Origin: Acidobacteriota bacterium
GTDB lineage: Bacteria; Acidobacteriota; CAIWXX01
DNA length: 64,000 bases
Assembly (NCBI GenBank): GCA_040755995.1
Contig: JBFMAF010000038.1
Location: forward strand, 1,593 to 65,592
Direction of reading: 5' to 3'
The notes under the pieces were generated by a model. It did no database searches and was not told the DNA's origin. It worked only from the letters and a program-made list of their open reading frames with translations. Positions 172-54,767 of this stretch are shown piece after piece. The position numbers and the translations under genes are program-made. Every line of letters starts with the position of its first letter. Within the stretch, counting starts at the first letter, position 1.

Positions 172-3100
172 GTGGTCGTGTCGTCGCGAGTCCTGTGCGT
201 GTCATTGTTCGGGGGGCTGCTCATCGGCTCCGTCGCGCAGGCCGCGCGGCTCCCGATCAAGACGTATACGACGGCGGACGGGCTGGCCCGTGACCACGTG
301 AATCACATCCTCTGTGATTCGAAAGGCTACGTGTGGCTCTGCACCACGGAGGGACTCTCCCGATACGACGGGTACGAATTCAGGAACTATGGTATTGCCA
401 ACGGCCTACCACATCCGTCTGTCTCGGACATTGTGGAGGCCGGGGAGGGCCGCTACTGGGTGGCCACCGGAGGCGGACTGTGTCTGTTCGACGCCGTACG
501 AGGCGGGAAGTTCACAGTCTACAGGCCGGAGGAGACTGGAGGCGGCAGGTATGTCGGCACGATCAGACGGAGTCGGTTCGGGTGGCTGTGGTGTGCCACG
601 AGTGCCGGGCTCTTCAAGATGCAGCAGTACGGAGACAGGATGCAGTTCGAGAAGGTGGACTTCGGAATTCCACCACTAGCCTGGGAAGGCCCACGTGTGC
701 TCGACATCGTCGAAGATCGCTCGGGACGCCTGTGGATTGCAGCTGAGGGGGAGCTCCACAGATATGACAGCAAGACTCGCACCGCCGCCCGCATCCCCGG
801 CTTCGCCCCTCCCTCCAACGGCGTCGGTGTCCTCTTCGCGGACCGCGATGGCCGCATCTGGGTGGGGACGACGAACGGAGTCTATGTGCTGGCCCTGGAT
901 GCCGGAGGTGAGGCCCGGCTGGAGCGTTCCTGGGAAGCGGCGCAGCTGCCGCTGATGTCCCACATCACGTCGCTGTTCCAGTCTTCCGACGGCACCATCT
1001 GGGTGGGAGCCTTCCGCGGGCTGACATCGTTCCGTCCGGATGCAGATGCCGGCGGATTCGACCTGCGGTCCTACACGAAAGCCAACGGCCTCAGCGATGT
1101 GGGAATCTCGAGTCTCGCCGAAGATAGAGACGGCAACCTGTGGGTCGGTACGGAGGTCGGCGGGGTGATGAAGATCTCGCAGAGCGGGTTCGTCTCCTAC
1201 GACCAGGCCGACGGGCTGGGAGGCACTCGGATCGATGCGATCTTCGAAGACCTGCAGGGCGATCTCTGTGTCTACACGACACATCTGGACAACATCACAA
1301 TATCGAGGTGGACGGGAAGCGGCTTCCGAGTCACCCGACCGAATCTCCCTCGCGGGATCACGTACACAGGGTGGGGCACTCACCAGCTCGCTCTCCAGGA
1401 CCACACCGGCGAATGGTGGATACCCACCGGGCAGGGGCTGTGTCGCTACCCGCGGGCGTCGAGCCCAGATGCCTTGGCGACGATGCCGCCCAAGGCGGTC
1501 ATGACATCTCGGGATGGACTGCCGGTAGACGAGATCTTCCGGCTCCACGAAGACCCTACCGGGGACATCTGGATTGGAACGATTGGCCCCACCGCGGGCA
1601 ACCTGAGTTGCTGGCACCGGGAGAGCGGGAAGCTCCAGCGCTACGTCGAAGGGGTTCCTCCGGAAGCGCCGACGGCGTTCCGCGAGGATCGCGCGGGCAA
1701 CCTCTGGATCGGCTTCTACCTCAGAGGTCTTGCGCGCCGTCGAGGAGAACGCTTCGACAGGTTCACAGAGAAGGAAGGCGCCCCAGCCGGCTTCATCTTC
1801 GATCTTTTCCTAGACAGCCAGGGCCGGATGTGGGTGGCAAGCCACCGCGGCGGGGTGGCGCGGATCGACGAGCCGGGCGCGCAGCACCCGAGCTTCACGC
1901 GATACACGACGCGCGAGGGTCTCTCGAGCAACGATGTACGCTGCATCACGGAGGACCGATACGGGCGGATCTACGTCGGCACCGGACGCGGCGTCGACCG
2001 GCTGGATCCGCGAACTGGACGAATCCGGCACTACACGACGGCCGACGGCCTGGCCTCCAGCGAGCAGCAGGTCGCATACAGGGATCGCAATGGAGTGCTT
2101 TGGTTCGGTACGATGGCTGGCCTGAGCCGCCTCGACCCGGCTCCCGACCCGCCATGCACTCCACCGCCGATCCTGATCCAGGGGATCCGGATCAGCGGCG
2201 AAGCCCTTCCGATTTCAGAGCTGGGAGAATCGGAAGTAGCGGCACTCGAGCTGGGTCCGACACAAAACCGCATCCAGCTCGACTTCATCGGGCTGGGCTT
2301 CGCAGCAGGAGAAGTCCTCCGCTACCAGTGGAGACTGGATGGGGCCGACCCTGACTGGGGAAGTCCTTCGCCCAGCCGATCGGTCAACTACGCACGACTC
2401 GCACCAGGCCGCTACCGGTTCCTTGTGCGCGCGGTGAGCTCCGACGGATCGACCAGCACCTCCCCCGCGTCCGTCTCCTTCGTGGTCTTGCCACCCATAT
2501 GGCGACGCTGGTGGTTCATCTCAGTCGCCGTCGTGTTCTCCGCTTCAGCATTGCTCACTGCGAATCATCTTCGGGTCAAGCGATTGCTCGAGCTCGAACG
2601 GGTGCGCACCAGGATCGCCACCGACCTCCATGACGACATCGGCGCGAGCCTTTCGCAGATCACCATTCTGAGCGAGGTGCTCCGGAAGAAGACCGGCGAT
2701 CAGGAGATCGAGTTCTCCGGGCCGCTCGATCAGATCGCCAAGACCTCGCGCGAGCTGATGGAGGCCATGAGCGACATCGTCTGGGCGATCAACCCGCGCA
2801 GAGACCGCCTCAGCGACCTCGTCATCAGGATGCGGCGCTTCGCAAGCGACATGCTCGCCTCCCGCGGAATCGCGCTGCGAATGGATGTGCCTGACAGCAG
2901 CCACGGCGACACGGCTCTCGGGGCGGACCTCAGACGGCACGTGCTGCTGATCTTCAAGGAGGGTGTCAACAACATCGTCCGCCACTCGAAGTGCGGAGAG
3001 GTGTCGATAGCGATGAGGATTCACGGCGGGTGGCTCAGCCTGCTGCTACGGGACGACGGCACGGGATTCGATCTTGGTAGCACGACCGGGCACGGACAAG

Positions 3101-3255
3101 GGCTGGCCAGCATGCGCGCGCGAGCGTCGAGCATGGGTGGCTGCCTCGACATCCGCTCGCGACCCGGCGGCGGGACCGAGATCGAGCTGCGGGTCCCTGT
3201 CGCCGGCCGCCCACACAGATGGGACCTCGGCGGGGCGCAGGCCCGGCCACAGTGA
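172..3255 (+). CDS. Sensor histidine kinase with N-terminal signal peptide, a long periplasmic region of two-component-regulator beta-propeller/Y_Y_Y-type repeats (repeated W..GT..GL..Y/F motifs), a TM helix, a HisKA_3-type dimerisation box (RIATDLHDDIGASLSQI) and HATPase_c (GHGQGLASMRARA...GG)
   Basis: 1027-aa ORF. Repeated 'RxWxGTxxGL' propeller motifs. H-box of NarX/DegS (HisKA_3) type. G1/G2 ATP-lid motifs near the C-terminus. Followed by a NarL-type response regulator. Confidence 0.8.
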   Translation: MVVSSRVLCVSLFGGLLIGSVAQAARLPIKTYTTADGLARDHVNHILCDSKGYVWLCTTEGLSRYDGYEFRNYGIANGLPHPSVSDIVEAGEGRYWVATGGGLCLFDAVRGGKFTVYRPEETGGGRYVGTIRRSRFGWLWCATSAGLFKMQQYGDRMQFEKVDFGIPPLAWEGPRVLDIVEDRSGRLWIAAEGELHRYDSKTRTAARIPGFAPPSNGVGVLFADRDGRIWVGTTNGVYVLALDAGGEARLERSWEAAQLPLMSHITSLFQSSDGTIWVGAFRGLTSFRPDADAGGFDLRSYTKANGLSDVGISSLAEDRDGNLWVGTEVGGVMKISQSGFVSYDQADGLGGTRIDAIFEDLQGDLCVYTTHLDNITISRWTGSGFRVTRPNLPRGITYTGWGTHQLALQDHTGEWWIPTGQGLCRYPRASSPDALATMPPKAVMTSRDGLPVDEIFRLHEDPTGDIWIGTIGPTAGNLSCWHRESGKLQRYVEGVPPEAPTAFREDRAGNLWIGFYLRGLARRRGERFDRFTEKEGAPAGFIFDLFLDSQGRMWVASHRGGVARIDEPGAQHPSFTRYTTREGLSSNDVRCITEDRYGRIYVGTGRGVDRLDPRTGRIRHYTTADGLASSEQQVAYRDRNGVLWFGTMAGLSRLDPAPDPPCTPPPILIQGIRISGEALPISELGESEVAALELGPTQNRIQLDFIGLGFAAGEVLRYQWRLDGADPDWGSPSPSRSVNYARLAPGRYRFLVRAVSSDGSTSTSPASVSFVVLPPIWRRWWFISVAVVFSASALLTANHLRVKRLLELERVRTRIATDLHDDIGASLSQITILSEVLRKKTGDQEIEFSGPLDQIAKTSRELMEAMSDIVWAINPRRDRLSDLVIRMRRFASDMLASRGIALRMDVPDSSHGDTALGADLRRHVLLIFKEGVNNIVRHSKCGEVSIAMRIHGGWLSLLLRDDGTGFDLGSTTGHGQGLASMRARASSMGGCLDIRSRPGGGTEIELRVPVAGRPHRWDLGGAQARPQ

Positions 3256-3361
3256 TCGACAACCCCACCTGAACAGGTGGTGACGGGCGAGTGAGTGCGC
3301 ACTATACTGGGAACGTAGAACGGTCGGGGACGGCACTCGCGACAGCAGGAGGAGCCCAGCC

Positions 3362-4045
3362 GTGAGGGAGAGAGCGGGAGTCGGCGGGAGGGAGACGCGG
3401 GAGGACGGGCTCATCCGCGTGACCGTCATCGAGGACCAGCAGCCGATCCGGGACGGGCTCTGCATGCTCATCGCGGGCACACCGGGCTTCGTCTGCGCCG
3501 GCAGCTACGAGTCGATGGAAGCGGCCCTTGCGGGCATCGACCGGGCTGTGCCCGACATCGCCATGGTGGACATCGCGCTCCCAGGAATGACAGGCATCGA
3601 AGGGATCCGGTTGCTCAAGCAGCGACACCCGAACCTGGTCGCGCTCATGCTGACGGTGTACGACGACGATGAGCGCATCTTCGATGCGCTGTGCGCAGGG
3701 GCCTGCGGCTACATGCTCAAGAACACGCCGCCGGCGCGGTTGCTGGAGTCGATCCGTGAGGCCGTCGATGGTGGCGCGCCGATGTCACCCGAGGTCGCGC
3801 GGCGCGTGATCGAGCTGTTCCGCCAGGTGCGGCCGCCTGCGAGCGCCGAGCACGACCTGACTCCGCATGAGCGACGTCTCCTCAAGATGCTCGTCGAAGG
3901 GCACAACTACACGACCGCCGCCCAGGAGCTCGGTGTCAGCATCAACACGATCTCGTTCCACATGCGGCACATCTACGACAAGCTGCACGTGCACTCCAAG
4001 TCGCAGGCCGTGGCGAAGGCTCTCCGCGACGGCCTCGTGAAGTAG
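3362..4045 (+). CDS. Response regulator, NarL/FixJ (LuxR-HTH) family. The true start may be the internal GTG near 3420 (VTVIEDQQ).
   Basis: REC motifs (VIEDQ..., acceptor Asp in MVDIALPGMTG, LTVYDD, K in CGYMLK). C-terminal LuxR HTH (LTPHERRLLKMLVEGHNYTTAAQELGVSINTISFHMRHIYDKLHV). Confidence 0.85.
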   Translation: MRERAGVGGRETREDGLIRVTVIEDQQPIRDGLCMLIAGTPGFVCAGSYESMEAALAGIDRAVPDIAMVDIALPGMTGIEGIRLLKQRHPNLVALMLTVYDDDERIFDALCAGACGYMLKNTPPARLLESIREAVDGGAPMSPEVARRVIELFRQVRPPASAEHDLTPHERRLLKMLVEGHNYTTAAQELGVSINTISFHMRHIYDKLHVHSKSQAVAKALRDGLVK

Positions 4046-4064
4046 CCCGCGATTAGCTCGTGGT

Positions 4065-4080
4065 GACGCCGCGCGGCGTC
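4065..4080. terminator. GC-rich 16-nt perfect palindrome (GACGCCGCGCGGCGTC) just downstream of the response regulator. Possible terminator stem or protein site; no U-tract.
   Basis: Perfect inverted repeat read directly from the sequence, 20 nt after the stop codon. Confidence 0.25.
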
Positions 4081-4149
4081 GCACGCACGTCCGGCTCGGG
4101 CGTCCATCCTCGTCACAAAGCCACCTGTACATGTGGCGACAACGCGCCT

Positions 4150-4218
4150 GAGCCGCGCGATCATTTCAGAGGATATCGACGAGGCAACCGACTCATCGTG
4201 AAGTGAGGAGGAAATACG
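4150..4218 (+). repeat. Conserved about 70-nt 5' leader/promoter-proximal segment shared with 7030-7093 (about 85% identity). It includes the RBS AGGAGG and is followed by the conserved N-terminus MRHKH.
   Basis: Direct comparison of the two upstream regions: tttcaga(g/c)gatatcgacgagg...atcgt(g/c)aagtgaggagga. Confidence 0.7.
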
Positions 4219-5928
4219 ATGCGCCACAAACACTTTCCTATGCCAGAGCACCTTCATGCAATGGCCGGCATGCTCACCGCCGCGTGCGTGGTGCTCGGGC
4301 TCTGCGTGGTGGCTCTGTCCGGAGCGAGCAGCGACTTGCCGGCGCGATCGGCAGCAGACAGCCACATCGTCGGGATCGATCGGGGCGCACGGAATGGCCA
4401 GCCCAATCCGGACTCGCCCTTCGTAGTCGACGGTGAGCTGGTGTGGAACACGTTCCTCGGCAGCGCCGCGTTGGACGGGGCTGAGACCGTCGCCGTCGAC
4501 CCGAGTGGGAACGTGTATGTGGCGGGCATCAGCGGTGCCACCTGGGGCACGCCCGTGAGACCCTTTTCCGGCAGCAGTGATGCCTTCGTGGCCAAGCTGG
4601 ATCCGAACGGGACCGTGCTGTGGAGCACATTCCTGGGTGGAGCTGGATCCGACGGTGCCTCCGGCATCGCTGTGGACGCCTTCGGGATCACCTACGTGGT
4701 GGGTAGAAGCAAGGCCACCTGGGGTACGCCGGTCAGGCCATATGCCTCCGGCGATGACATCTTCGTGGCGAAGCTGGACCCGAGTGGGGCACTCCTCTGG
4801 AACACCTTCCTCGGCGGTGTGAACGAGGACTGGGGCCTTCGCGTAGCCGCGGACGCCTTTGGGAATTCCTGCGTGGCCGGTCAGAGCAGCGGCACGTGGG
4901 GCTCGCCGGTCAGGCCTTACACGGCTGGGTACGACGGCTTCGTGGCGAAGCTCGACGCCGCCGGGTCTCTCCTCTGGAACACCTTCCTCGGCGGCACGGC
5001 AGGGGACGGTGCCACGGGCGTGGCTCTGGATGGTTCCGGCAACACGTACATCTCCGGTTCTAGCTATGCCGGATGGGGCTCCCCGGTCAGGCCATACTCG
5101 GGCACTCCGGATGCTTTCGCGGCCAAGATGGATCCGAACGGACTGCTCGTCTGGAACACCTTCCTGGGTGGAGGAGGGTGGGCCACGGGCGAGGGTATTG
5201 ATGTCGACACCTCAGGCACCGCGTACGTGGTGGGCGACAGCGGCGGCACCTGGGGCTCGCCCGTGAGGCCGTACACGGCTGGGTCGGATTCCTTCGCTGC
5301 CAGGCTGGACGCCAACGGGCTTCTCGTCTGGACCACATTCATGGGCGGCGCCGTCGATGATCGCGGGCGAGCGATCCAACTCGGCGGCACCGGGAGTGTC
5401 TGCGTCGTAGGCAAGAGCGACGGCACATGGGGATCACCTCTGAGGCCGTACACAGCAGACGCCGACGCGATCGCGGTGAAGCTCCATGCCGATGGATCAC
5501 TCATCTGGAACACATTCATCGGCGGCACCGGACGAGACTTCGGCTACGGGATCGCGCTGGACAGCACAGAGGACATGCACCTGGTGGGCTACAGCAAGGC
5601 GAGCTGGGGCACGCCTGTGAGGCCCTATACGGCGGACGCAGACGTGTTCGTCGCAACGCTCGCGCATGCTCCGCCCGGTCCGACCGTCACGCAGATCAAG
5701 TCCAAGAAAGCGACCCGCGGCAGCGCAGCGACGATCATCGGCACGGGCTTCTCGACGAAGAAGACGGACAACGTCGTCTACTTCGGCAAGAAGAAGGCCG
5801 ATGTGAAGAGGGCCACTGCCAAGAGGCTCAGTGTGAAGATTCCGACGAAGTGCAAGAAGGGAAAGAACAGCGTGTACGTCGTCGTGAAGGGCGTCAAGAG
5901 CAACGTCGTGACATTCACGGTGAAGTAG
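4219..5928 (+). CDS. Secreted SBBP beta-propeller-repeat protein (about 10 repeats of 'WNTFLGG..D.G.GIAVD..GN.YV.G.S...WG.PVRPY.G..DAFVAKLD..G') with a C-terminal IPT/TIG-like domain
   Basis: Signal/TM-like N-terminus. Highly regular roughly 50-aa repeats typical of the SBBP (Acidobacteria-type) repeat. C-terminal 85 aa 'PPGPTVTQIKSKKATRGSAATIIGTGF...VVKGVKSNVVTFTVK'. Confidence 0.75.
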   Translation: MRHKHFPMPEHLHAMAGMLTAACVVLGLCVVALSGASSDLPARSAADSHIVGIDRGARNGQPNPDSPFVVDGELVWNTFLGSAALDGAETVAVDPSGNVYVAGISGATWGTPVRPFSGSSDAFVAKLDPNGTVLWSTFLGGAGSDGASGIAVDAFGITYVVGRSKATWGTPVRPYASGDDIFVAKLDPSGALLWNTFLGGVNEDWGLRVAADAFGNSCVAGQSSGTWGSPVRPYTAGYDGFVAKLDAAGSLLWNTFLGGTAGDGATGVALDGSGNTYISGSSYAGWGSPVRPYSGTPDAFAAKMDPNGLLVWNTFLGGGGWATGEGIDVDTSGTAYVVGDSGGTWGSPVRPYTAGSDSFAARLDANGLLVWTTFMGGAVDDRGRAIQLGGTGSVCVVGKSDGTWGSPLRPYTADADAIAVKLHADGSLIWNTFIGGTGRDFGYGIALDSTEDMHLVGYSKASWGTPVRPYTADADVFVATLAHAPPGPTVTQIKSKKATRGSAATIIGTGFSTKKTDNVVYFGKKKADVKRATAKRLSVKIPTKCKKGKNSVYVVVKGVKSNVVTFTVK

Positions 5929-5976
5929 GACCGTGGCGGTGAAGCCAATCCCGATCGTCAAAATGGAGGTCAAGCA

Positions 5977-6888
5977 ATGAAACGATTGAGTCTCGGTGGA
6001 GGAATCGCGGTTGGATTCGTGCTCTCGCTGGCGCTCGGATCGCCGGCCATGGGAGCAGAGGAGAAAGGCGGCGGCTCTGTCCAAAGCCTGAACGGCCTGA
6101 AAGGCAAGCTGAACCTCGCGGGAGGTCTGGGCACATCGATCGCCAAAACCAATCGCAAGACCCTGACCATCACCGGCCTCACCTTCCCGTACTCGGCGCC
6201 GGTGTCCACGACTTTGCCTTCATTCCAGGTCACGAACAACGTCCCCGCCGGGCACTCTAGCATCGCCATCAAAGCCGAGGTCAAAGGCTACGGCACGGCC
6301 ATCGACGCCACCGACAACACGGGCCTGCCCTCCGGCTGCGCATTGCGTGCCTACTCTGGATGCGGTTACGCCCTCGACGCCTGGGGGAACGTTGGCGTCT
6401 ATGGGAACGTTGACCTCAGCGGCACTCTTTCCAAGGGCGCCGGCTCCTTCAAGATCGACCATCCGCTGGATCCGGAGAACAAGTATCTGTACCACTCTTT
6501 CGTCGAGTCGCCGGACATGATGAACATCTACAACGGCAACGCCGTCCTCGACGAGAACGGAGAGGCGACCATCGAGATGCCGGAGTGGTTTGGTGCGCTC
6601 AACCGGGATTTTCGGTATCAGCTCACGTGCATCGGCGGCTTCGCTCCGGTCTACATAGCCGAGAGGATGCATGGGAACCGTTTCAAGATCGCCGGGGGTC
6701 AAGCGGGCTTGGAGGTTTCCTGGCAGGTCACCGGCATCCGCAAGGATCCTTTCGCCAACGCGCACCGCATTCCGGTGGAAGAGGAAAAGCCGGATGAAGA
6801 GCGTGGGTATTACCTGCATCCTCGCGAGGCGGGGCAGCCGGAGGAGCTCGGGATCTTGTGGAGACAGCGATCTGACAGCGTGCGTTGA
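5977..6888 (+). CDS. Secreted protein (signal peptide MKRLSLGGGIAVGFVLSLALGSPAMG) with a conserved C-terminal domain carrying the motif DHPLDPENKYLYHSFVESPDMMNIYNGNAVLDENGEATIEMPEWFGALNRDFRYQLT. Family not resolved (reminiscent of tail-fibre/adhesin-like surface protein C-domains).
   Basis: 303-aa ORF with signal peptide and a good RBS (GGAGGTCAAGCAATG). Inserted between two SBBP paralogs. Confidence 0.55.
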   Translation: MKRLSLGGGIAVGFVLSLALGSPAMGAEEKGGGSVQSLNGLKGKLNLAGGLGTSIAKTNRKTLTITGLTFPYSAPVSTTLPSFQVTNNVPAGHSSIAIKAEVKGYGTAIDATDNTGLPSGCALRAYSGCGYALDAWGNVGVYGNVDLSGTLSKGAGSFKIDHPLDPENKYLYHSFVESPDMMNIYNGNAVLDENGEATIEMPEWFGALNRDFRYQLTCIGGFAPVYIAERMHGNRFKIAGGQAGLEVSWQVTGIRKDPFANAHRIPVEEEKPDEERGYYLHPREAGQPEELGILWRQRSDSVR

Positions 6889-7029
6889 TGACCGCGCAGT
6901 CCATGCAGGCTTGGATAGGGCATGCTCATCGCCGAGAAGCCGGGATTCCCTGCGCCGCTCTTTCCTCTCGCCGCACGGGTCTTCGTGATCACAGCGCGAA
7001 CGGTGCATGCGCCGCAGTGCGATTGAGTC

Positions 7030-7093
7030 TCCCGATCCTTTCAGACGATATCGACGAGGTAGCTGATTGATCGTCAAGTGAGGAGGACATCCG
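7030..7093 (+). repeat. Second copy of the conserved SBBP-gene 5' leader (see 4150-4218)
   Basis: About 85% identity to 4150-4218, including RBS and spacing to ATG. Confidence 0.7.
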
Positions 7094-8782
7094 ATGCGTC
7101 ACAAACACTCTCCCGTCCAAGAGAACGCTTGTGCAATGACCCGCATGGTCACCGCGGCCTGCGTGGTGCTTGGCCTTCTTGTGGCGGCGCCACCCGATGC
7201 GAGAGGCGATCCACCGGCGCGATCCGCTCGGGGCGCAGTGAATGGCCGCGCCAATCCCCACTCGCCCCTCGTGGCCGACGGCGAGCTCGTCTGGAACACC
7301 TTCCTGGGTGGAGCGGACTATGACGAAGTGTGGGCGATCGCAGTGGACAGTGCCGGATGCTCATACGTGGTGGGCAGATGCGGCGCTAGTTGGGGCTCCC
7401 CGGTCAGACCCTACACAGCGAGCCTGGATGGCTTCGTTGCGAAGATTGATGCGCACGGGGCACTGCTGTGGAACACCTTCCTGGGGGGTTCCAGCTATGA
7501 CTCGGTCAACAGGATCGCCCTGGACGGCGCCGGGAACGTATATGTAGTGGGCGACAGCCAGGCGACCTGGGGCCTGCCACTACGGCCATACACAGCCATG
7601 AGTGATGCCTTCGCGGCGAAGCTGACCCCGAGCGGTGCGCTCCTCTGGAGCACGTTCCTCGGCGGCTCCGCAAATGACGGCGGCTACGGGATCGCCGTGG
7701 ACAGTGCCGGGAGTCCCTGCGTGGCCGGCACGAGCGGCGCGGCTTGGGGCTCCCCGGTCAGGCCCTACACGGCGAACCAGGATGGCTTCGTTGCGAGACT
7801 CGATACCAACGGATCGATCTTGTGGAACAGCTTCATGGGCGGGGGCTCCTGGGAATCGTGCAGCCAGGTCGCATTGAATGGGAGTGGAGCTGCGTACGTC
7901 TTGGGCCAGAGCCCGGCGAGCTGGGGATCGCCCGTAAGACCGTACACCGGAGGCGACGACATGTTCGCGGCGGAACTGGATGCGGGCGGGTCACTCGTGT
8001 GGAACACGTTCCTCGGCGGAGGCGGGAGCGATAGAGCCGGCGACATCGCCGTGAACGCGGGCGGGGTGGTATCCCTTGTGGGAACAAGCGATGCCAGCTG
8101 GGGCTCGCCCGTCAGGCCGTACTCTGCGGACAAGGATGCCGTCGCAGTCAGATTGAACGCGGCGACCAGGGCGCTCGTCTGGAGCACGTTCCTCGGCGGA
8201 GGCGGAGATGACCGTGGATGGGGGATCGCACTGGATAGCGACGGGAACGCATACGTTGCCGGTCCCTCGGCAACTGCCTGGGGTACGCCGGTCAGACCAT
8301 ACAGCGGATACTACGACGCTGTCGCGACGAAGCTGGATGTGAACGGAGCGGTAGTGTGGAACTCGTTCCTCGGGAGCGTCGCAGTCGACGCCGGAACCGG
8401 CGTCGCCCTGAACGGCACTGGTGATGTCTACGTGGCAGGTCACAGCGAAGCCACGTGGGGTGCACCTGCCAGCCCCTACACGGGGAACACCGACGGGTTC
8501 GTCGCCAAGCTGGCGCATGTTCCTCCGGGTCCCACGATCACGCAGATCAAGTCCGAGAAAGCAACTCGCGGCAGCGCAGCGACGATCATCGGCACAGGCT
8601 TCTCCACGAAGAAGACCGACAACGTCGTCTACTTCGGCAAGAAGAAGGCCGACGTGAAGCGGGCGCGAACGACCCGGCTCCAGGTGACCATCCCGAACAA
8701 CTGCAAGAAGGGGAAGAACAACGTGTACGTCGTCGTCAAGAGCGTCAAGAGCAACGTCATGACATTCACAGTGAAGAAGTAG
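7094..8782 (+). CDS. Secreted SBBP beta-propeller-repeat protein with C-terminal IPT/TIG-like domain (paralog of 4219-5928)
   Basis: Same N-terminus (MRHKHSP...), same repeat architecture, and a near-identical C-terminal about 250-bp coding segment (8521-8779 vs 5675-5925). Confidence 0.75.
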   Translation: MRHKHSPVQENACAMTRMVTAACVVLGLLVAAPPDARGDPPARSARGAVNGRANPHSPLVADGELVWNTFLGGADYDEVWAIAVDSAGCSYVVGRCGASWGSPVRPYTASLDGFVAKIDAHGALLWNTFLGGSSYDSVNRIALDGAGNVYVVGDSQATWGLPLRPYTAMSDAFAAKLTPSGALLWSTFLGGSANDGGYGIAVDSAGSPCVAGTSGAAWGSPVRPYTANQDGFVARLDTNGSILWNSFMGGGSWESCSQVALNGSGAAYVLGQSPASWGSPVRPYTGGDDMFAAELDAGGSLVWNTFLGGGGSDRAGDIAVNAGGVVSLVGTSDASWGSPVRPYSADKDAVAVRLNAATRALVWSTFLGGGGDDRGWGIALDSDGNAYVAGPSATAWGTPVRPYSGYYDAVATKLDVNGAVVWNSFLGSVAVDAGTGVALNGTGDVYVAGHSEATWGAPASPYTGNTDGFVAKLAHVPPGPTITQIKSEKATRGSAATIIGTGFSTKKTDNVVYFGKKKADVKRARTTRLQVTIPNNCKKGKNNVYVVVKSVKSNVMTFTVKK

Positions 8783-8911
8783 GAGTGTGCCGGTGTGCAG
8801 GCAGCGGGGCTTCTTCGCGATGTGGGGCTCCGAACAGCAGATGGGTTGGATGAGCGCCCCGTGTGCCCGTCTGGTACAGCCGGGGACCTACCAACTCTGG
8901 GAGGAGATCCA

Positions 8912-10636
8912 GTGAGACGGAGACACGATCCCTCGTACCACGGTCTGCATCTAACATCCCGCGCGCTGCTCGGGGTGTGCATTGTGTTCGGGCTTTCGGT
9001 GGCGCCGCCACCCCATGCGAGAGGTGATCCACCGACACGACTCACTGCGGACCGCGACCTGTCCAGTCTAGACAAGGGCGTTCCGATTGAGGAGCAGGCG
9101 CCCGGCTCAGCCTCCGTTGTGGACGGCGAGCTCGTCTGGAAAACCGTCTTCGGCGGATCCGGCCACGGAAGTGCCGCCGCGATAGCGATCGACACTGCCC
9201 AGAACTCCATCGTGGTCGGCCAAAGCGAAGCCGGCTGGGGCTCGCCCGTCAGGCCGTACGTAGGAGACTGGGATGCATTCGTGGTGAAATTCGATGCCAA
9301 CGGGACTCTCGTCTGGAACACGTTCCTCGGTCACGTCATGATGGATACTGGGGAGGGAGTCGCAGTCGATCACGAGGGGAGTATCTATGTGGTGGGTTCG
9401 AGCCATGTCGGCTGGGGCTCTCCGGTCAGGCCCTTCACAGCAACAGACGCCCATTTTGAAGACGCGTTTGTTGCGAAGCTGGACGCCGACGGAAATCTCG
9501 TTTGGAACACCTTCCTAGGCGGTTACGAAAGAGATTATGGCCTGGGGATCGATGTGGACCTCTCGGGGCACGCGTGCGTGGTGGGCTGCAGCTACGGCGC
9601 TTGGGGCTCACCCGTCAGGCCGTTTGCGGTGGGGGCCGATGGATTCGTGGCGAGGCTCGAGGCAAACGGGGCACTGGCCTGGAGCACGTTCCTCGGGGGT
9701 CCGGGTCATACAGAGACTACTGGGATCGGACTGGATTTGGGCGGAGCAGCATACGTGGGAGGGTGGTCAGACTACACCTGGGGCGTGCCAGTCAGGCCAT
9801 TTGCGGACTCGTTCGATGCCTTCGCTGCGAAACTGGATGCCAGCGGGGCCCTCATCTGGAACACGTTTCTAGGTGGCACCAACATGGACACAGCGCGCGG
9901 GATCGCGGTGGGCAGCGGTGGAAATGCATATCTGCTGGGATCCAGCTTGTCTGGCTGGGGGACACCGGTGAGACCCTTCACACCGAATGACCCGAGCTGT
10001 ATGGGCTACCTGGATGCGTTCGCGGCGAAGCTGGATGCAGGTGGGGAGCTTGTGTGGAACACCTTCCTCGGCGGTGGTTGCGAAGATGGCGGGGACGGGA
10101 TCACACTCGACACCAGCCAGAACGCCTACGTTGCGGGCGTTTCCAGCAGCGGCTGGGGCTCGCCCATCAAGCCGTTCGGGGGGGATTACGACGGGTTTGT
10201 TGCGAAAGTGGATGCAGGTGGTGCGCTCGTCTGGAACACGTTCCTGGGCGGCACTTCTCACGACACCGCAAACGGCGTCGGCTCCGACGGCACCGGGGTC
10301 CTCTATGTGACCGGCAACTGTCCTGGCGACTGGGGGGGCCCCGGGGGTGAGATGTATCTCGCCAAGCTCGCGCATGCCCCCCCTGGCCCCACTATCACAC
10401 AGATCAAGTCGAAGAAGGCCGCCAAGGGCAGTCCCGCAACGCTTGTCGGCACGGGCTTCTCCACGACCAAAGCCGACAACGTCGTCTACTTCGGCAAGAA
10501 GAAGGCCGAGGTCAAGACCGCCAGGACGACGAGACTCAAGGTGAAGATCCCGAAGAACTGCAAGAAGGGAAAGAACAACGTGTACGCGGTCGTCAATGGC
10601 GTCAAGAGCAACGTCGTCACGTTCACGGTGAAGTAG
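8912..10636 (+). CDS. Third secreted SBBP-repeat / IPT-TIG paralog. GTG start at 8912 is preferred over the upstream ORF start at 8795.
   Basis: RBS GGGAGGAG 6 nt upstream of GTG. Hydrophobic N-terminus, SBBP repeats, and a C-terminal IPT-like domain that is about 85-90% identical at DNA level to the other two copies (10375-10633). Confidence 0.7.
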   Translation: MRRRHDPSYHGLHLTSRALLGVCIVFGLSVAPPPHARGDPPTRLTADRDLSSLDKGVPIEEQAPGSASVVDGELVWKTVFGGSGHGSAAAIAIDTAQNSIVVGQSEAGWGSPVRPYVGDWDAFVVKFDANGTLVWNTFLGHVMMDTGEGVAVDHEGSIYVVGSSHVGWGSPVRPFTATDAHFEDAFVAKLDADGNLVWNTFLGGYERDYGLGIDVDLSGHACVVGCSYGAWGSPVRPFAVGADGFVARLEANGALAWSTFLGGPGHTETTGIGLDLGGAAYVGGWSDYTWGVPVRPFADSFDAFAAKLDASGALIWNTFLGGTNMDTARGIAVGSGGNAYLLGSSLSGWGTPVRPFTPNDPSCMGYLDAFAAKLDAGGELVWNTFLGGGCEDGGDGITLDTSQNAYVAGVSSSGWGSPIKPFGGDYDGFVAKVDAGGALVWNTFLGGTSHDTANGVGSDGTGVLYVTGNCPGDWGGPGGEMYLAKLAHAPPGPTITQIKSKKAAKGSPATLVGTGFSTTKADNVVYFGKKKAEVKTARTTRLKVKIPKNCKKGKNNVYAVVNGVKSNVVTFTVK

Positions 10637-10679
10637 CTCGGCGCCTCAACTGAATCAACTCAACCAAAGGAGGTCGAGA

Positions 10680-11465
10680 ATGAACAAACGTGCAATCGTG
10701 GCACTCCTGTCGGTTCTCGCCGTGACGGCGTGCCTCTCGTATGCGCAGGAAGCCTCGGAATCGATCGAAGATGTCGCCACGGTTGGTCAGACCGGGTGGA
10801 GATGGTGCAGCAAGTGCGAGGGCATGCATTTCATCACCAACGGTCTTGGCCCGTGTCCCGCGGGCGGGACGCACGACGTGGCTGGCAGCAGCCTGTACAA
10901 GCTGATCAACAACGACTTCACCGCCGACGGGCAACATTGGTGGCGGTATTGCAAGAAGTGCAAAGGCCTTTTCTACGGGGGTCACGAAACCCAGGGCGTC
11001 TGCCCGGCCGGCGGCGCTCACGACAGCTCGTGGAGCGGGGACTACTGCGTCATTCACAACAGCACCGCAGCGCCGGGCCAGCAGAACTGGAGGTGGTGTT
11101 CCAGGTGCGAAGGCCTCTTCTACGGCGGCCATGCATCCCTGGGCACCTGCCCGGCCGGCGGGCAGCATTCGCTGTCGGGCAGTGGCAACTACACACTGCT
11201 CTTCGAGACTAAGGACGCAGTTGTTTGGGGAAGGGTGACAGACTCCAGTGCCGCGCCCGTTGCAAAGGCCAGCGTCAAGATCCAGGGGAAAGCCGGCACC
11301 AAGACGATGAAGAGCGCCACGGATGGGAGCTACGGGTTCGCCGGCTTGAAGCAGGGCAAGTACACGTTCACCGCCAGCAAGAAAAACGTTGGAGATGCGA
11401 AGCGAACCGCCAGGCTGCAGAGCGGCGACGCGAAGAGCGTCGCCCTGGTGCTGAAGAAGAAATAG
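10680..11465 (+). CDS. Secreted protein with three tandem roughly 55-aa Cys-rich modules (WRWCxKCEGLFYGG...G.CPAGG.H...GSG.Y) followed by a carboxypeptidase-regulatory-like (CarboxypepD_reg) beta-sandwich domain
   Basis: Signal peptide MNKRAIVALLSVLAVTACLSYA. Three clear repeats each containing C-x2-C...C...C. C-terminal 'GRVTDSSAAPVAKASVKIQG...GSYGFAGLKQGKYTF'. Confidence 0.65.
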   Translation: MNKRAIVALLSVLAVTACLSYAQEASESIEDVATVGQTGWRWCSKCEGMHFITNGLGPCPAGGTHDVAGSSLYKLINNDFTADGQHWWRYCKKCKGLFYGGHETQGVCPAGGAHDSSWSGDYCVIHNSTAAPGQQNWRWCSRCEGLFYGGHASLGTCPAGGQHSLSGSGNYTLLFETKDAVVWGRVTDSSAAPVAKASVKIQGKAGTKTMKSATDGSYGFAGLKQGKYTFTASKKNVGDAKRTARLQSGDAKSVALVLKKK

Positions 11466-11483
11466 CGCACTGCCCGGCGAAAC

Positions 11484-11501
11484 CCCGCCGCCGGCGGCGG
11501 G
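11484..11501. terminator. 18-nt perfect GC palindrome CCCGCCGCCGGCGGCGGG immediately after the 10680-11465 gene. Terminator-like hairpin without a U-tract.
   Basis: Read directly from the sequence. Confidence 0.3.
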
Positions 11502-11550
11502 AGTGTGAATGAGCATGTGAAACAATGAAACGCCATCGCAGGAGATTATC

Positions 11551-12543
11551 ATGAAACGAATATTGATCATCCATGCCCTTCTGCTCGGATACGTGGCCTC
11601 AGCGCACGCCGCCGAGTACTACTACGTGCCTCTGATCCGGCAAGAGGCAGATGGCACCTGGGATCTCTACTGGATGAAGCTGAATGAGAGCGGCAAGCGG
11701 GTGAAGGGACCCCGATTGATCCGGAACAGCGCAGGCATCGTGGGATCAGCGACGATCACGCCGGAAGGGAATAAGGTGTACTTCAGCGAATCCCCCGCCC
11801 CGTTGGTGGCTCAGCAGCTCTACTCGCTTGAAGTGAATCCCAAGAACGGCAAGGTCGCGAGCGCTCCGGTCGCACTGACGGGCGGATCGTATGTGTACTT
11901 GCACGGCGTGAGCCTCTCAAAAGACGGCAAGAAGCTTGTGTACGCCAGATGGGACTACGACTACACGCCCGCAGCCATCGATGACATCTTACTGCAGAGA
12001 TTCAAGAAGAACGGCTCTTTGTCGACAGTGACGAAAGCGATCGCGACAGTACCTGGTGTCAACGAATGGCTGCCGTTCATAACGGAGGACGGCAGGAGCG
12101 TCTACTATTGCCTGGAGGACGGCGGCAAGAACAGCATCATGCTGCAGCGGGTGAAGCGGCTCGGGGCTCCGGCCGGCCCGCCGATCCCGGTGATCCAGAT
12201 CCCGGGCGAAGACGTGCGCCAGCCGATGGTGGAGGCTGGAGGAACCTGGATGTCATATATCCGATACGCTGCCTGGGACGACAACAACCTCTACGTGACC
12301 CGACTTTCCGGCAACGGTCTCCCAACCGGAGCGCCGATCAAGATCACGTCGCTGGGTGCGGACCAGTGGCCCGCAGGCGGCCTGACGCGAAACTCGAAGC
12401 TGCTCGTCTACTCGGTCCTCAGTCCCGCGCCCACATGCCCGGTCTACTCTCAGAAGCTCGATGCCAACGGCCATCCGGCAGGTGCGCCGAAGCTTCTGAA
12501 CAGCTCGTCCTGCACGCAGTATCCCTGGGTTCTGCCGGACTAG
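11551..12543 (+). CDS. Secreted TolB-like/PD40-type beta-propeller protein (hypothetical)
   Basis: Signal peptide MKRILIIHALLLGYVASAHA. Repeated 'S.DGK.l.Y' propeller-like segments. RBS AGGAGA. Confidence 0.55.
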   Translation: MKRILIIHALLLGYVASAHAAEYYYVPLIRQEADGTWDLYWMKLNESGKRVKGPRLIRNSAGIVGSATITPEGNKVYFSESPAPLVAQQLYSLEVNPKNGKVASAPVALTGGSYVYLHGVSLSKDGKKLVYARWDYDYTPAAIDDILLQRFKKNGSLSTVTKAIATVPGVNEWLPFITEDGRSVYYCLEDGGKNSIMLQRVKRLGAPAGPPIPVIQIPGEDVRQPMVEAGGTWMSYIRYAAWDDNNLYVTRLSGNGLPTGAPIKITSLGADQWPAGGLTRNSKLLVYSVLSPAPTCPVYSQKLDANGHPAGAPKLLNSSSCTQYPWVLPD

Positions 12544-12648
12544 TCCTGCGGCCCGTGGGGCGAACTGCGACGAGCACGTTGGAATGAGCCCGGTGGATGG
12601 CCACCGGGGCGGAAGATGGGCTGAGTGTGACGACTCCGGGCGTGTGCT

Positions 12649-13116
12649 GTGCCGTGTGGGAGAAGGGGCATGAGACTCAGAGCAATGGTGTTCGTGTTAG
12701 TGGCCTTCCTGGGAGTTCCAATGCTCGCTTCCGGTGAACAGAATGCCGGCAAGAACCAGGTGTTCGTATGGGGTGGTGCATGCGACCTGTTCGACGAGAT
12801 GTCGACCGCAATCTATGGAGCCTCCTATGGTCGCTATCTGACGAGATGGCTGATGCTGGAGGCGGGAGTCGAAGGCTACAGCGGCGACGTCTCCGGCACG
12901 TGGTCAAGAATCAACGCGCTCTTTGAGATTCCGACCGGGAGTCGGTTGGCCGCCTATGCGATTGCGGGTACCTCCAGCTTCTATCCCGACCTTGGAGCAG
13001 GGGCGAAGATCAGATTCGCCTCGCGTGTGGGGATACGCCTCGAATACACGCGGGCCTATGACGATGACGAGGGCTGGTACGGCAACATTCGCGGCGGAGT
13101 CACCCTCAGCTTCTGA
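12649..13116 (+). CDS. Small outer-membrane beta-barrel protein (OmpW/OMP_b-brl-like)
   Basis: Signal peptide, alternating amphipathic strands, and a C-terminal ...GGVTLSF aromatic terminus. Confidence 0.6.
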   Translation: MPCGRRGMRLRAMVFVLVAFLGVPMLASGEQNAGKNQVFVWGGACDLFDEMSTAIYGASYGRYLTRWLMLEAGVEGYSGDVSGTWSRINALFEIPTGSRLAAYAIAGTSSFYPDLGAGAKIRFASRVGIRLEYTRAYDDDEGWYGNIRGGVTLSF

Positions 13117-53294: not shown

Positions 53295-54767
53295 ATGCTG
53301 GTCTTCAGGAATTTGCCCACTGTGATGATCGGAATCCCCCGCCGTTCACCCGGCGTGACCATCGCCGGTCAGACATCGCCGGGCGGGATCATCGTCCGGG
53401 GATTCCATACGACCGAAGAGCCGTTCATCGATCAGGAGGTCGGCCGGATCAACGATCCGGACGTGCGCCACGCGGAGAACTGGATCTTGCGGCACATTCG
53501 ATCCAGACCCGCCGGAAGCGGGCTGGATGACGGCCTTCGCATCCGCTACACGAAGAACGCAATCGTCGATCATTGCTCTATTGCGAACGCCGACGATGAG
53601 ACCGTCGAGATCTCATTCGCGAGTAACATCACGGTGCAGAACTGCATCTTCGCTGAGAACATCAGCGAGCACTACATTTACGGTGGCATGCTGATCAACT
53701 ACACGAACCCGGCGGACGGGTTTCCGCTGGACCGGCTGAGCATTCATCACAACACGTGGAACCGGATCGAGGGACGGATGCCGGAGCTGTCCCGCGGCTC
53801 GCCGGCGGCCGGCGGGACATACATGGACATCGAGCTCGCGAACAACCTGCTCTGGGACCCGGGCTACTTCATAGACGTCAACCAGACGACCATTTCCGGC
53901 ACGGGCGACGGCGATCCGGTCTACTACCACCTGAACTGGATCGGCAACTATGCGTATGCCCGGGGAGACTTCCCGTACGGGATGATATGGTTCCCCGTGA
54001 ACGATCCGAATCACAGCACGATATACTTCGGCGACAACCGCATGAACCTCTACGGCGATCGGTATGACTACGGATTGATCTACTGCTGCAACGATTACCC
54101 ATCGGCAAGTGTTGAGAACGATCCGCCCTCCTATGCGCGACAGGCGCGCCACCCGTTCCCGCCGATCACCTACCAGCCGAGCTCGGGCCTGCGCGCGTAC
54201 ATGCAGGCGAGCGCCGGAGCTTTCCCGCGGGATCCGATGGACAGGAGGCTGATGGGGCCGGTCGGAACCGGTGTGATCGATCCGGCGCCGCGCAACCGGA
54301 ATCAGCATCACGATGCCTTCGCCGTGGACTGGACGACACCGCCCCCCGCGCCTCAGGATAGCGACTCGGACGGAATGCCGGATAGCTGGGAGACCGCCCA
54401 CGGGCTCGATCCGACCCGCCAGGACCACAACGGAACCGTGCTTTCGCCGCTCGGGTACACCAACCTCGAGGTCTATCTGAACGAGCTGGCGGGGACACCG
54501 GTGGGTGATCCGGCGCTGCGCATAACGCGCGTCACGAGCAGGAAAGGCGCGCCTGGAAGCTCTGCGAGCATCCTTGGCTCCGGATTCGGAGCTGACAGGA
54601 GTGTCGTCGGCGCGTGGTTCGGATCGACCGGCGCAAGAGTGAAGGGTGTCACACCGGCGAAGATCCAGGTCACTGTCCCACGATCTCTACGCCGGGGCCA
54701 GACGGTCGGAGTCCACGTCAGCGTCGCTGGAGTTCCCAGCAACACGGTGCGGTTCCGAGTGAGATAG
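53295..54767 (+). CDS. Right-handed beta-helix polysaccharide (pectate)-lyase-like protein with Ca-binding DxDxDG segment and C-terminal IPT/TIG-like domain. No signal peptide; possibly 5'-truncated.
   Basis: 'IVDHCSIANADDETVEISFASNITVQNCIF' style parallel beta-helix repeats. 'DSDSDGMPDSWETAHGLDP'. C-terminal domain similar to the SBBP paralog tails. Confidence 0.5.
   Translation: MLVFRNLPTVMIGIPRRSPGVTIAGQTSPGGIIVRGFHTTEEPFIDQEVGRINDPDVRHAENWILRHIRSRPAGSGLDDGLRIRYTKNAIVDHCSIANADDETVEISFASNITVQNCIFAENISEHYIYGGMLINYTNPADGFPLDRLSIHHNTWNRIEGRMPELSRGSPAAGGTYMDIELANNLLWDPGYFIDVNQTTISGTGDGDPVYYHLNWIGNYAYARGDFPYGMIWFPVNDPNHSTIYFGDNRMNLYGDRYDYGLIYCCNDYPSASVENDPPSYARQARHPFPPITYQPSSGLRAYMQASAGAFPRDPMDRRLMGPVGTGVIDPAPRNRNQHHDAFAVDWTTPPPAPQDSDSDGMPDSWETAHGLDPTRQDHNGTVLSPLGYTNLEVYLNELAGTPVGDPALRITRVTSRKGAPGSSASILGSGFGADRSVVGAWFGSTGARVKGVTPAKIQVTVPRSLRRGQTVGVHVSVAGVPSNTVRFRVR

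Follow-up and report, generated by a model that had tools for sequence, protein, structure and literature searches.

A tandem family of three SBBP-propeller/IPT genes with conserved ends and a diverged middle in an uncultured Acidobacteriota bacterium

Introduction

When tandem paralogues are alike at their ends and diverged in between, does the pattern record recombination among the copies, or the different constraints that act on the parts of one protein? This question is raised by an array of three + strand open reading frames (ORFs), here termed A, B and C, within a 64-kb stretch of DNA (the window) from an uncultured Acidobacteriota bacterium. An initial, sequence-only reading described them as a tandem family of secreted SBBP-propeller/IPT proteins, attributed their mosaic conservation to gene conversion or recombination, and proposed that the array is a surface-protein diversification locus. 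Our analysis favors a plainer account, which we consider probable: A, B and C would be old paralogues in tandem, whose exported products act as binding proteins in the periplasm or at the cell surface, with a conserved-end mosaic arising mainly from differing protein constraint, a C-terminal tail serving as a putative shared attachment module, a leader representing a duplicated promoter, operator or 5'UTR, and gene conversion playing a secondary part.

Organization of the locus

Each of the three genes encodes an N-terminal hydrophobic segment, a beta-propeller of seven 59-aa SBBP repeats and a C-terminal IPT/TIG domain. The Pfam scores of A, B and C all lie above the gathering thresholds, both for SBBP (PF06739; 42.6, 46.1 and 35.2 bits against 20.5) and for TIG (PF01833; 28.2, 28.3 and 24.7 bits against 20.9), and together with the ORFs themselves they uphold the description of a tandem family of three SBBP-propeller/IPT proteins, for which export is predicted. 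Gene A (4219..5928, + strand; 569 aa) was characterized by Pfam, an AF2 model and a Foldseek match to CylK. Gene B (7094..8782, + strand; 562 aa) has the same architecture by ORF and Pfam analysis, and its product is identical to a deposited protein from an Acidobacteriota MAG, P0006, annotated as 'SBBP repeat-containing protein'. Gene C (8912..10636, + strand; 574 aa) starts 129 nt after the stop codon of B and has its own GGAGGAG ribosome-binding site (RBS); its start was placed at the GTG at 8912 (MRRRHD...) and not at the ORF-maximal GTG at 8795, in agreement with the deposited 574-aa protein P0037. A fourth gene, orfX (5977..6888, + strand; NCBI tag AB1714_23855, hypothetical), lies between A and B, 48 nt 3' of A, and encodes an exported, unrelated protein of 303 aa whose C-terminal half consists of a domain that is very widespread and has no family model.

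Upstream of the array and on the same strand are a sensor histidine kinase (172..3255, +; Pfam matches to Reg_prop, 166 bits, Y_Y_Y, 45 bits, HisKA_3, 37.5 bits, and HATPase_c, 49 bits) and a NarL/LuxR-type response regulator with Response_reg and GerE domains (3362..4045, +; Pfam), whose stop codon precedes the start of gene A by 173 nt. The array does, as first proposed, sit directly downstream of a propeller-sensing two-component system, and this adjacency is the basis on which the two are possibly linked in function. In other MAGs the two-component system was not seen linked to genes bearing the same tail; one such locus (L002) instead has an ECF sigma/anti-sigma pair and a CHAT-TPR gene. 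On the other side of the array, within 10680..13116, Pfam identified three further + strand genes separated by short gaps, which encode an exported protein with a Cys-rich repeat and a CarboxypepD_reg domain (10680-11465), an exported PD40 propeller protein (11551-12543) and an exported protein with a weak OMP beta-barrel match (12649-13116).

Propeller domains and their relatives

In the AF2 model of A (pLDDT 85 overall and >90 in the folded parts), a predicted helix (residues 11-30) and a low-confidence linker (31-72) are followed by a propeller of 28 strands (~74-481) and the IPT tail (489-568). All three genes carry seven W-N-T-F-L-G anchors at 59-aa spacing, as expected of a closed seven-bladed propeller, and their blades are the same ~59-aa units as in other SBBP proteins (PF06739), with the framework W-N-T-F-L-G-G ... 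W-G-S-P-V-R-P-Y ... D-A-F-V-A-K-L. No clear lipobox was found in A, B or C. The three proteins are predicted to be exported; their hydrophobic N-terminal segment, followed by a presumably flexible linker, would serve for export or as an anchor and may be cleaved, and the tail may act in sorting or anchoring.

Proteins of the SBBP family, including the LipL53 lipoproteins of Leptospira, are exported and either of unknown function or adhesin-like. A, B and C fall outside the LipL53 family itself (NF047494, an equivalog model; 156, 125 and 126 bits against a curated cutoff of 400), and LipL53-type proteins lack the C-terminal cationic IPT domain that A, B and C possess. The only solved relative is CylK (PDB 7FH6/7RON), whose seven-bladed propeller is homologous (phmmer E 4.5e-34; Foldseek E 3e-25, TM 0.64), and this likeness raises the alternative that the propellers are enzymes catalyzing Friedel-Crafts alkylation or related small-molecule chemistry, not binding proteins. 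In CylK, however, the essential Arg105 comes from an N-terminal Ca-binding domain, and the active site is formed at the interface between domains (PMC8916777). No such domain is present in A, B or C: the match spans only CylK residues 246-546, and what precedes the propeller of A, which begins at ~residue 74, is a signal segment and a linker. The biosynthetic context of CylK is missing as well, with no adjacent halogenase or PKS gene among the ORFs scanned with Pfam, and we therefore regard CylK-like catalysis as very unlikely.

The propellers of A, B and C share 50-54% amino acid identity with one another and 47-57% with homologues in other MAGs. Blades at the same position in different genes are 50.8% identical, compared with 49.1% for different positions between genes and 49.3% for blades within a gene, and the ~50% identity among the three propellers is only the floor set by the blade consensus. 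Nucleotide identity of the propellers is 63, 59 and 60% among the pairs (59-63% for the gene bodies). By class of site, dN is 0.36-0.45 for the whole propeller, 0.12-0.15 for its framework and 0.95-1.29 for the inter-strand loops, which constitute ~37% of propeller positions and in which both dN and dS are saturated, with omega at 0.54-0.74 and hence below 1. With framework residues kept and loops diverged, the paralogues would presumably bind different ligands.

Hypervariable loops on a conserved scaffold, present in tandem copies, are also consistent with programmed diversification by a DGR, a shufflon, phase-variable cassettes or silent-cassette recombination. Yet inverted repeats do not exceed 27 nt in length or rise above chance-like quality, and there are neither cassettes nor near-identical repeats that might act as templates, the blade repeats all being 60-76% identical to one another. 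Further, no reverse transcriptase or recombinase was detected among the 18 ORFs scanned (the neighbors of the array and ORFs up to 28.4 kb), and the saturation and omega of the loops likewise argue against such a system. Programmed diversification is accordingly the least probable of the alternatives that we weighed, and the proposed diversification locus finds no support here.

The shared leader of A and B

A leader precedes both A and B: the 75 non-coding nt of copy 1 (4144..4218, + strand) and copy 2 (7019..7093, + strand) are 80% identical, and identity reaches 84.9% over 73 nt when 4158-4230 is aligned with 7033-7105 (blastn E 2.7e-11). The leader contains a 21-nt core, TTTCAGANGATATCGACGAGG, that is found only at these two sites in the 64 kb (0.01 expected by chance). 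Both genes have a GAGGAGG RBS, with which copy 1 ends, and both proteins start with MRHKH. These observations confirm the duplicated leader that had been noticed before A and B, and limit it to those two genes, as C has no leader copy. Upstream of copy 1, at 4110-4125, lies an imperfect palindrome, CCACCTGTACATGTGG; a sigma-70-like promoter was not detected in either leader.

The leader is most simply read as a duplicated promoter, operator or 5'UTR. Its duplication would have created two co-regulated units, one consisting of A and orfX and the other of B, C and the genes downstream, possibly under the control of the adjacent histidine kinase/NarL pair. An alternative, which the sequence-only reading suggested testing in the form of an sRNA or riboswitch-like element, is that the leader acts in cis as a structured regulatory RNA (riboswitch, thermometer or sRNA). 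It is a non-coding element of ~75 nt conserved above the synonymous level (80% identity against 0.56 at neighboring four-fold sites), and both copies allow a short ACGA...TCGT hairpin to be drawn. The remaining evidence points the other way: with E values up to 1 admitted, Rfam 15 has no match in 3000-12000 (including 4046-4218 and 6889-7093); folding z-scores are -1.17 and -0.35; the MFE structures differ between the copies, of which there are only two; and C works without the leader. We consequently give little credence to an RNA element and retain the duplicated promoter, operator or 5'UTR.

Selection and gene conversion in the 3' block

A repeat search of the window identified a 3' family at 5651-5928, 8502-8779 (85%) and 10359-10636 (81%), in which 278 nt are 81-86% identical, compared with 59-63% in the gene bodies. 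The conserved block of A (5651..5928, + strand) comprises the end of blade 7, an AHAPPGP linker and the cationic IPT/TIG domain (charge +19, pI 10.7); those of B (8502..8782, + strand) and C (10359..10636, + strand) encode tails with net charges of +16 and +17. The repeat is indeed present in all three copies, although the initial figure of 85-90%, or 'near-identical', was slightly high, the segments first delimited being 85.7% (A-B), 80.9% (A-C) and 80.5% (B-C) identical. Overall, the genes are more alike at their two ends, in the leader of A and B and in the 3' 250 bp, than in their bodies.

What maintains the likeness of the tails? It begins at the boundary between blade 7 and the linker and stops exactly at the stop codon. 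The tail is uniformly constrained, with a dN of 0.09-0.13 that is well below the value for the whole propeller, and the propeller framework is constrained equally. Among the copies in the window, the tail proteins share 77-86% identity; with the tails of P0017, P0024 and P0034 in other MAGs, the figure is 65-77%. In the MAG bin-3382, moreover, tails on unlinked genes (with FGE-sulfatase-like and RCC1 passengers) are 83-89% identical in protein, and an identity of 85% persists there while as few as 15/41 four-fold sites are identical. As low tail dN, identity across MAGs, the boundary at the stop codon and the saturated sites of bin-3382 can all be accommodated by selection on the protein, such selection suffices, and we attribute tail conservation mainly to purifying selection, as judged from these sequence comparisons.

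The alternative is concerted evolution, in which recurrent gene conversion or unequal recombination keeps the copies of the 5' leader and of the 3' IPT module uniform and leaves the propeller free to diversify. Several observations are in its favor. NG dS in the tail (0.47-0.76) is about half that in the propeller (1.25-1.64); four-fold identity in the tail, at 0.59-0.64, is above saturation and exceeds the 0.37-0.41 of the propeller (Fisher p 0.004-0.045), a comparison confounded by stronger codon bias in the tail, where GC3 is 0.87-0.89 against 0.71-0.79 and Lys is AAG in 48/51 codons. Identical codons are in excess of the expectation from pooled codon usage (z 4.0-5.2), and the tails are 3-21 points (~9 on average) closer within the window than to those of other MAGs. 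Informative sites differ in their pattern from one part of the genes to another (chi-square p 0.0009), and at the 5' end the first 70 codons form a patchwork: sites that group A with B prevail at codons 0-20 (23:6:3) and 45-70 (18:7:1), and a B-C tract covers codons 30-42 (36/39 nt identical).

On the other hand, tail dS still amounts to 0.5-0.75, and there are no long identical tracts between A, B and C, the longest being 35-37 nt, with one 35-nt run common to all three. The codon excess falls to z 1.6-2.8, the level of the propeller, under tail-specific codon usage. The boundary at the stop codon, the tail identity across MAGs and the likeness retained in bin-3382 despite saturated four-fold sites also count against homogenization. 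We therefore judge concerted evolution unlikely as the principal cause. Of the original proposal, a residual synonymous signal and the 5' patchwork remain, while conversion is not needed for most of the tail conservation: short-tract gene conversion probably contributed the 5' patchwork and may have made the synonymous sites of the tail diverge more slowly, as a secondary effect. Given the four-fold identity of the tail and the shared 35-nt run, conversion or nucleotide-level constraint could nonetheless carry more weight than we have assumed.

The cationic IPT/TIG tail

The tail is predicted with high confidence (pLDDT 92) to be an Ig-like seven-strand sandwich of ~82 aa, and its fold matches (TM 0.74-0.84) are generic IPT domains, namely the IPT/TIG (E-set) domains of CGTase domain D, plexin and Met, which have the same Ig-like fold. 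The combination of IPT and beta-propeller in an exported protein is already known from the Bacteroides PUL lipoproteins with NHL propellers (PDB 3HRP, 3TC9). There, however, the IPT domain lies at the N-terminus as a spacer, whereas A, B and C have a single IPT domain at the extreme C-terminus with a net charge of +16 to +19, attached to acidic passengers.

The same tail recurs in several Acidobacteriota MAGs, where it is lysine-rich, ends in F-x-V-K/R and occupies the extreme C-terminus in every example. Its passengers are unrelated to one another (SBBP, FGE-sulfatase-like, RCC1, another propeller and beta-helix), and all 16 of the 16 tail-bearing proteins display a charge dipole, with tails of +7 to +19 (pI 9.7-12.0) and remainders of -11 to -31. 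Tails need not be alike within a genome: in the MAG JACPPM01, the adjacent tails L001a and L001b are only ~50% identical. The window itself contains a second class on an unlinked gene for a right-handed beta-helix passenger (53295..54767, + strand; TIG 26.7 bits), whose Arg-rich tail (54510-54764, charge +13) is 35% identical to that of A.

A shared attachment module, tethering the acidic passenger either to some anionic component of the envelope or to a partner protein common to all, would fit these features. This role may be proposed by analogy with homologues in which a T9SS CTD (P0084, Por_Secre_tail at 480-555 of 559) or SLH (P0022, P0049) stands behind the propeller: their layout of signal, propeller and one small C-terminal module is that of A, B and C, and their propellers are 45-51% identical to that of A. 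Taken further, an Acidobacteriota clade might use this domain, with its net charge of ~+12 to +19 and its constant place in the final ~82 residues, as a hitherto undescribed tag for attachment or sorting, grafted onto unrelated acidic passengers. Selection would then keep copies more alike within than between genomes, since every copy would have to fit the one partner particular to its genome, whether a polymer of the envelope or a protein of secretion or anchoring; we offer this extension only tentatively.

A similarly doubtful variant holds that the cationic IPT domain is a dedicated sorting signal for a specific secretion or attachment machinery, comparable to the T9SS CTD and co-evolving with it in each genome. 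Its terminal position and compact sandwich fold, the diversity of its passengers, the presence of T9SS CTD or SLH at the same place in homologues, and protein likeness that is greater within than between genomes even at saturated synonymous sites all speak for such a signal. The tail nevertheless has no detectable sequence relation to Por_Secre_tail: it has no Pfam or NCBIfam match to PF18962/TIGR04183, and its profile aligns with the T9SS CTD of P0084 at an hhalign probability of 0.07%. Nor were secretion-system genes found among the 18 window ORFs scanned with Pfam, where no T9SS component (PorU/PorV and others) scored above cutoff within the 64-kb window. The fold matches are to generic IPT domains only, and two divergent tail classes coexist in one genome, which weakens the case for one common partner.

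Discussion

We conclude that A, B and C are a paralogue family of the ordinary kind, in which selection on the protein sequence of the tail has been the main influence, and not a special diversification device. The mosaic would arise as the tail cannot change while the loops can, with propeller identity held at the repeat-consensus floor. The locus is ordinary in another respect, adding three more members to an uncharacterized SBBP propeller family with >7,700 relatives in one search. It also serves as a worked example that gene conversion need not be invoked when tandem paralogues of repeat proteins have conserved ends and differ in the middle. If the tail is an anchoring tag, it would help to predict which proteins are displayed at the surface in a phylum that is ecologically abundant and poorly cultured.

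A tandem array of putatively exported propeller/IPT proteins

Four plus-strand genes occupy the region from 4.1 to 10.7 kb. Three of them, A (4219-5928; 569 aa), B (7094-8782; 562 aa) and C (574 aa), encode putatively exported proteins with an SBBP beta-propeller and a C-terminal IPT/TIG domain, hereafter the tail, while the fourth, orfX (5977-6888; 303 aa; NCBI tag AB1714_23855, hypothetical), lies between A and B and is unrelated to them. The longest open reading frame of C opens at 8795, yet GGAGGAG followed by a GTG at 8912 can be read in the sequence, and the protein that starts there begins MRRRHD..., the counterpart of the MRHKH of A and B. An Acidobacteriota MAG has, on a contig of 76,351 nt, deposited proteins identical to B (P0006) and C (P0037; 574 aa), and these bear out the starts of both genes. 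A search with protein A returned both of these without a 100% self-hit for A, whose deposited annotation may use a different start or be marked otherwise.

Upstream of A, Pfam identifies a Reg_prop/Y_Y_Y/HisKA_3 histidine kinase (172-3255, plus strand) and a NarL-type response regulator (3362-4045, plus strand); downstream of C are three further plus-strand genes for exported proteins (10680-13116). The gap between A and orfX is 48 nt, and those from B through C into the downstream genes are 129, 43 and 85 nt, a spacing that suggests two transcription units, A-orfX and B-C-downstream. The first downstream protein (10680-11465, plus strand) has three Cys-rich repeats of ~49 aa (W-R-W-C-x-K-C-x-G-L-F-Y-G-G ... 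C-P-A-G-G-x-H) without a Pfam match, followed by a CarboxypepD_reg domain (Pfam); repeat copies 2 and 3 (10941-11014 and 11088-11161) share 76% DNA identity.

The C-terminal ~155 residues of orfX (KIDHPLDPENKYLYHSFVESPDMMNIYNG...FRYQLTCIGG) recur at 60-77% identity in at least 8,000 proteins from Acidobacteria, Bacteroidetes, Phycisphaerae, Calditrichaeota, Ignavibacteriae and Acetothermia, preceded by N-termini as varied as collagen repeats, SLH and 'trimeric autotransporter adhesin'. This very widespread domain is without a family model, neither a Pfam or NCBIfam model nor a PDB relative having been found; the one PHROG match is weak and has no function assigned.

A, B and C all score above the Pfam thresholds for both SBBP and TIG. 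Each has seven blades of 59 aa, to which C adds two small insertions. In the AlphaFold model of A (pLDDT 85; folded parts above 90), an N-terminal helix (residues 11-30) is followed by a low-confidence linker (residues 31-72), seven blades made from 28 strands and a seven-strand sandwich (residues 489-568). Modelled by itself, the tail reaches a pLDDT of 92, and its fold matches are classical IPT domains: domain D of CGTase, plexin, Met and the IPT of Bacteroides IPT+NHL lipoproteins. A cysteine lies within the hydrophobic N-terminal segment (LTAAC in A and B, with more hydrophobic residues after it; LGVC in C), which makes an unconvincing case, from sequence, for lipoproteins.

Among solved structures the propeller has a single relative, CylK (phmmer E 4.5e-34; Foldseek E 3e-25), whose chemistry depends on an N-terminal Ca-binding domain, the source of Arg105 (PMC8916777). 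Because this catalytic domain is missing from A, B and C, a CylK-like enzyme was ruled out. Membership of the LipL53 family was also rejected, as was, by every test run, the possibility that the proteins are T9SS substrates. The three proteins join, as new members, a known family that is functionally uncharacterised and very large, with more than 7,700 relatives retrieved in one search; in NCBI, B and C already carry SBBP and IPT/TIG names.

A shared leader upstream of A and B

The leader noticed in the sequence-only reading is real: positions 4158-4230 and 7033-7105 are 84.9% identical (E 2.7e-11), the 75 purely non-coding nucleotides upstream of A and B are 80% identical, and a 21-nt core was found at only these two sites in the 64 kb. 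No leader of this type stands upstream of C. The accompanying suggestion of a small RNA or riboswitch did not hold, as the leader has no Rfam match, and its two copies differ in MFE structure and fold no better than shuffled sequence (z -1.17 and -0.35). A promoter and terminator scan gave nothing beyond shuffled expectation, with no consensus sigma-70 promoter or terminator. The leader's 80% identity exceeds that of nearby four-fold sites (0.56), which makes a function as DNA or as a 5'UTR probable; a promoter/operator duplicated together with an RBS would be the simplest explanation. Further upstream, at an equal relative position in both copies, imperfect palindromes can be read (CCACCTGTACATGTGG for A, GGTGCATGCGCC for B), which are candidate sites for a dimeric regulator.

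Conservation of the 3' ends

The 3' ends of the three genes form a repeat family, D7 (5651-5928, 8502-8779 and 10359-10636; 85% and 81% identity). Over the intervals originally proposed as near-identical repeats, identity is 85.7, 80.9 and 80.5%, compared to 59-63% in the propeller, so that the repeat stands and its description was somewhat overstated. The DNA similarity runs from the blade 7/linker boundary to the stop codon and halts exactly there; such domain-edge boundaries are predicted by protein constraint and not by a DNA repeat. All three tails share a 35-nt run, GACAACGTCGTCTACTTCGGCAAGAAGAAGGCCGA (5771-5805, 8622-8656 and 10479-10513), and codon bias alone is an unlikely cause of the three-way identity at its Val, Gly and Ala codons. 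A local hairpin can be drawn in the run (columns 121-154 of the alignment); covariation is uninformative on it because the run is invariant. A structured RNA in the tail DNA was rejected, with no Rfam match, no significant folding and a positive (unfavourable) covariation term.

Blades are 50.8% identical at the same position between genes, 49.1% at different positions between genes and 49.3% within a gene, and the propellers of A, B and C are 50-54% identical to one another and 47-57% to homologues in other MAGs. Identity among the three propellers is thus at a floor at which only the repeat consensus remains. The divergence is located in the loops (~150 codons; dN 0.95-1.29, omega 0.54-0.74); dN is 0.12-0.15 at framework positions of the propeller and 0.09-0.13 in the tail. 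Between tails, identity is 77-86% within the window, falling to 65-77% against P0017, P0024 and P0034, homologues in other MAGs. Three tails in Acidobacteria MAG bin-3382, carried by unlinked genes with different passengers, have 83-89% protein identity with four-fold sites identical at down to 15/41, which indicates that protein-level selection alone can hold the tail.

The mosaic of conserved ends and diverged middles had been taken to suggest gene conversion or recombination at a diversification locus, a reading that gains only partial support. Some conversion signal is present: dS is 0.47-0.76 in the tail versus 1.25-1.64 in the propeller, four-fold identity is 0.59-0.64 versus 0.37-0.41 (p 0.004-0.045), the 35-nt run is shared by all three copies, and informative-site patterns vary along the genes (chi-square p 0.0009). 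The A-B pattern dominates at codons 0-20 and 45-70, with a B-C tract at codons 30-42 (36/39 nt identical), and within the tail it dominates in the first third only. Three results oppose a major role: the codon bias of the tail is stronger (GC3 0.88-0.89 versus 0.71-0.79; Lys is AAG in 48/51 codons), the excess of identical codons drops to z 1.6-2.8, equal to the propeller, under tail-specific codon usage, and no identical tracts longer than 37 nt were found between A, B and C. Diversification machinery was not found in the array or among the 18 ORFs scanned, and an inverted-repeat/shufflon search was negative. In our reading, the 5' end likely contains old, short conversion tracts and the tail may contain some too, but they are secondary to selection.

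A cationic tail with multiple passengers

The tail has a net charge of +16 to +19 (pI 10.6-10.7), while the remainder of A, B and C is at -18 to -30 (pI 4.2), and this dipole of basic tail and acidic rest is present in 16/16 tail-bearing proteins examined. The tail is always the last ~82 residues and ends F-x-V-K/R. In two further Acidobacteria MAGs its passengers are FGE-sulfatase-like, RCC1 and other propeller proteins, and several fragments also bear such a tail. A right-handed beta-helix (pectate-lyase-like) protein (53295-54767, plus strand; DSDSDGMPDSWE motif) carries at its C-terminus an Arg-rich IPT domain (net +13, pI 12) that shares just 35% identity with the Lys-rich tails; with it, this genome has two classes of cationic C-terminal IPT.

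At two bin-3382 loci (L002, 2773-10252; L003, 190-5326), FGE-sulfatase-like/IPT-tail genes adjoin a divergently oriented gene for a CHAT-TPR protein (~1,100-1,180 aa), with an ECF sigma/anti-sigma pair in between at L002. This recurring neighbourhood differs from that of the window, where a two-component system is found.

A scan of GTDB genomes with the tail profile gave only five loci, the source of the multi-passenger evidence, and no close relatives. A metagenome scan gave 29 loci, all at most 50% identical (all but three at most 40%), which were set aside as generic IPT domains, and a word-indexed profile search returned only seven short fragments. An exhaustive HMM search gave 13,512 matches, which are dominated by multi-IPT giant proteins and do not measure the frequency of a single C-terminal cationic IPT.

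In SBBP homologues of like layout, the C-terminal place of the tail is taken by a T9SS sorting domain or by SLH repeats, and this shared position suggests, by analogy, that the tail may serve in attachment or sorting. Against such a role are the coexistence of two divergent tail classes in one genome and the lack of any sequence relation found between the tail and T9SS CTDs. The array offers one lead of note, namely that its cationic C-terminal IPT domain may be an anchoring tag of Acidobacteriota.
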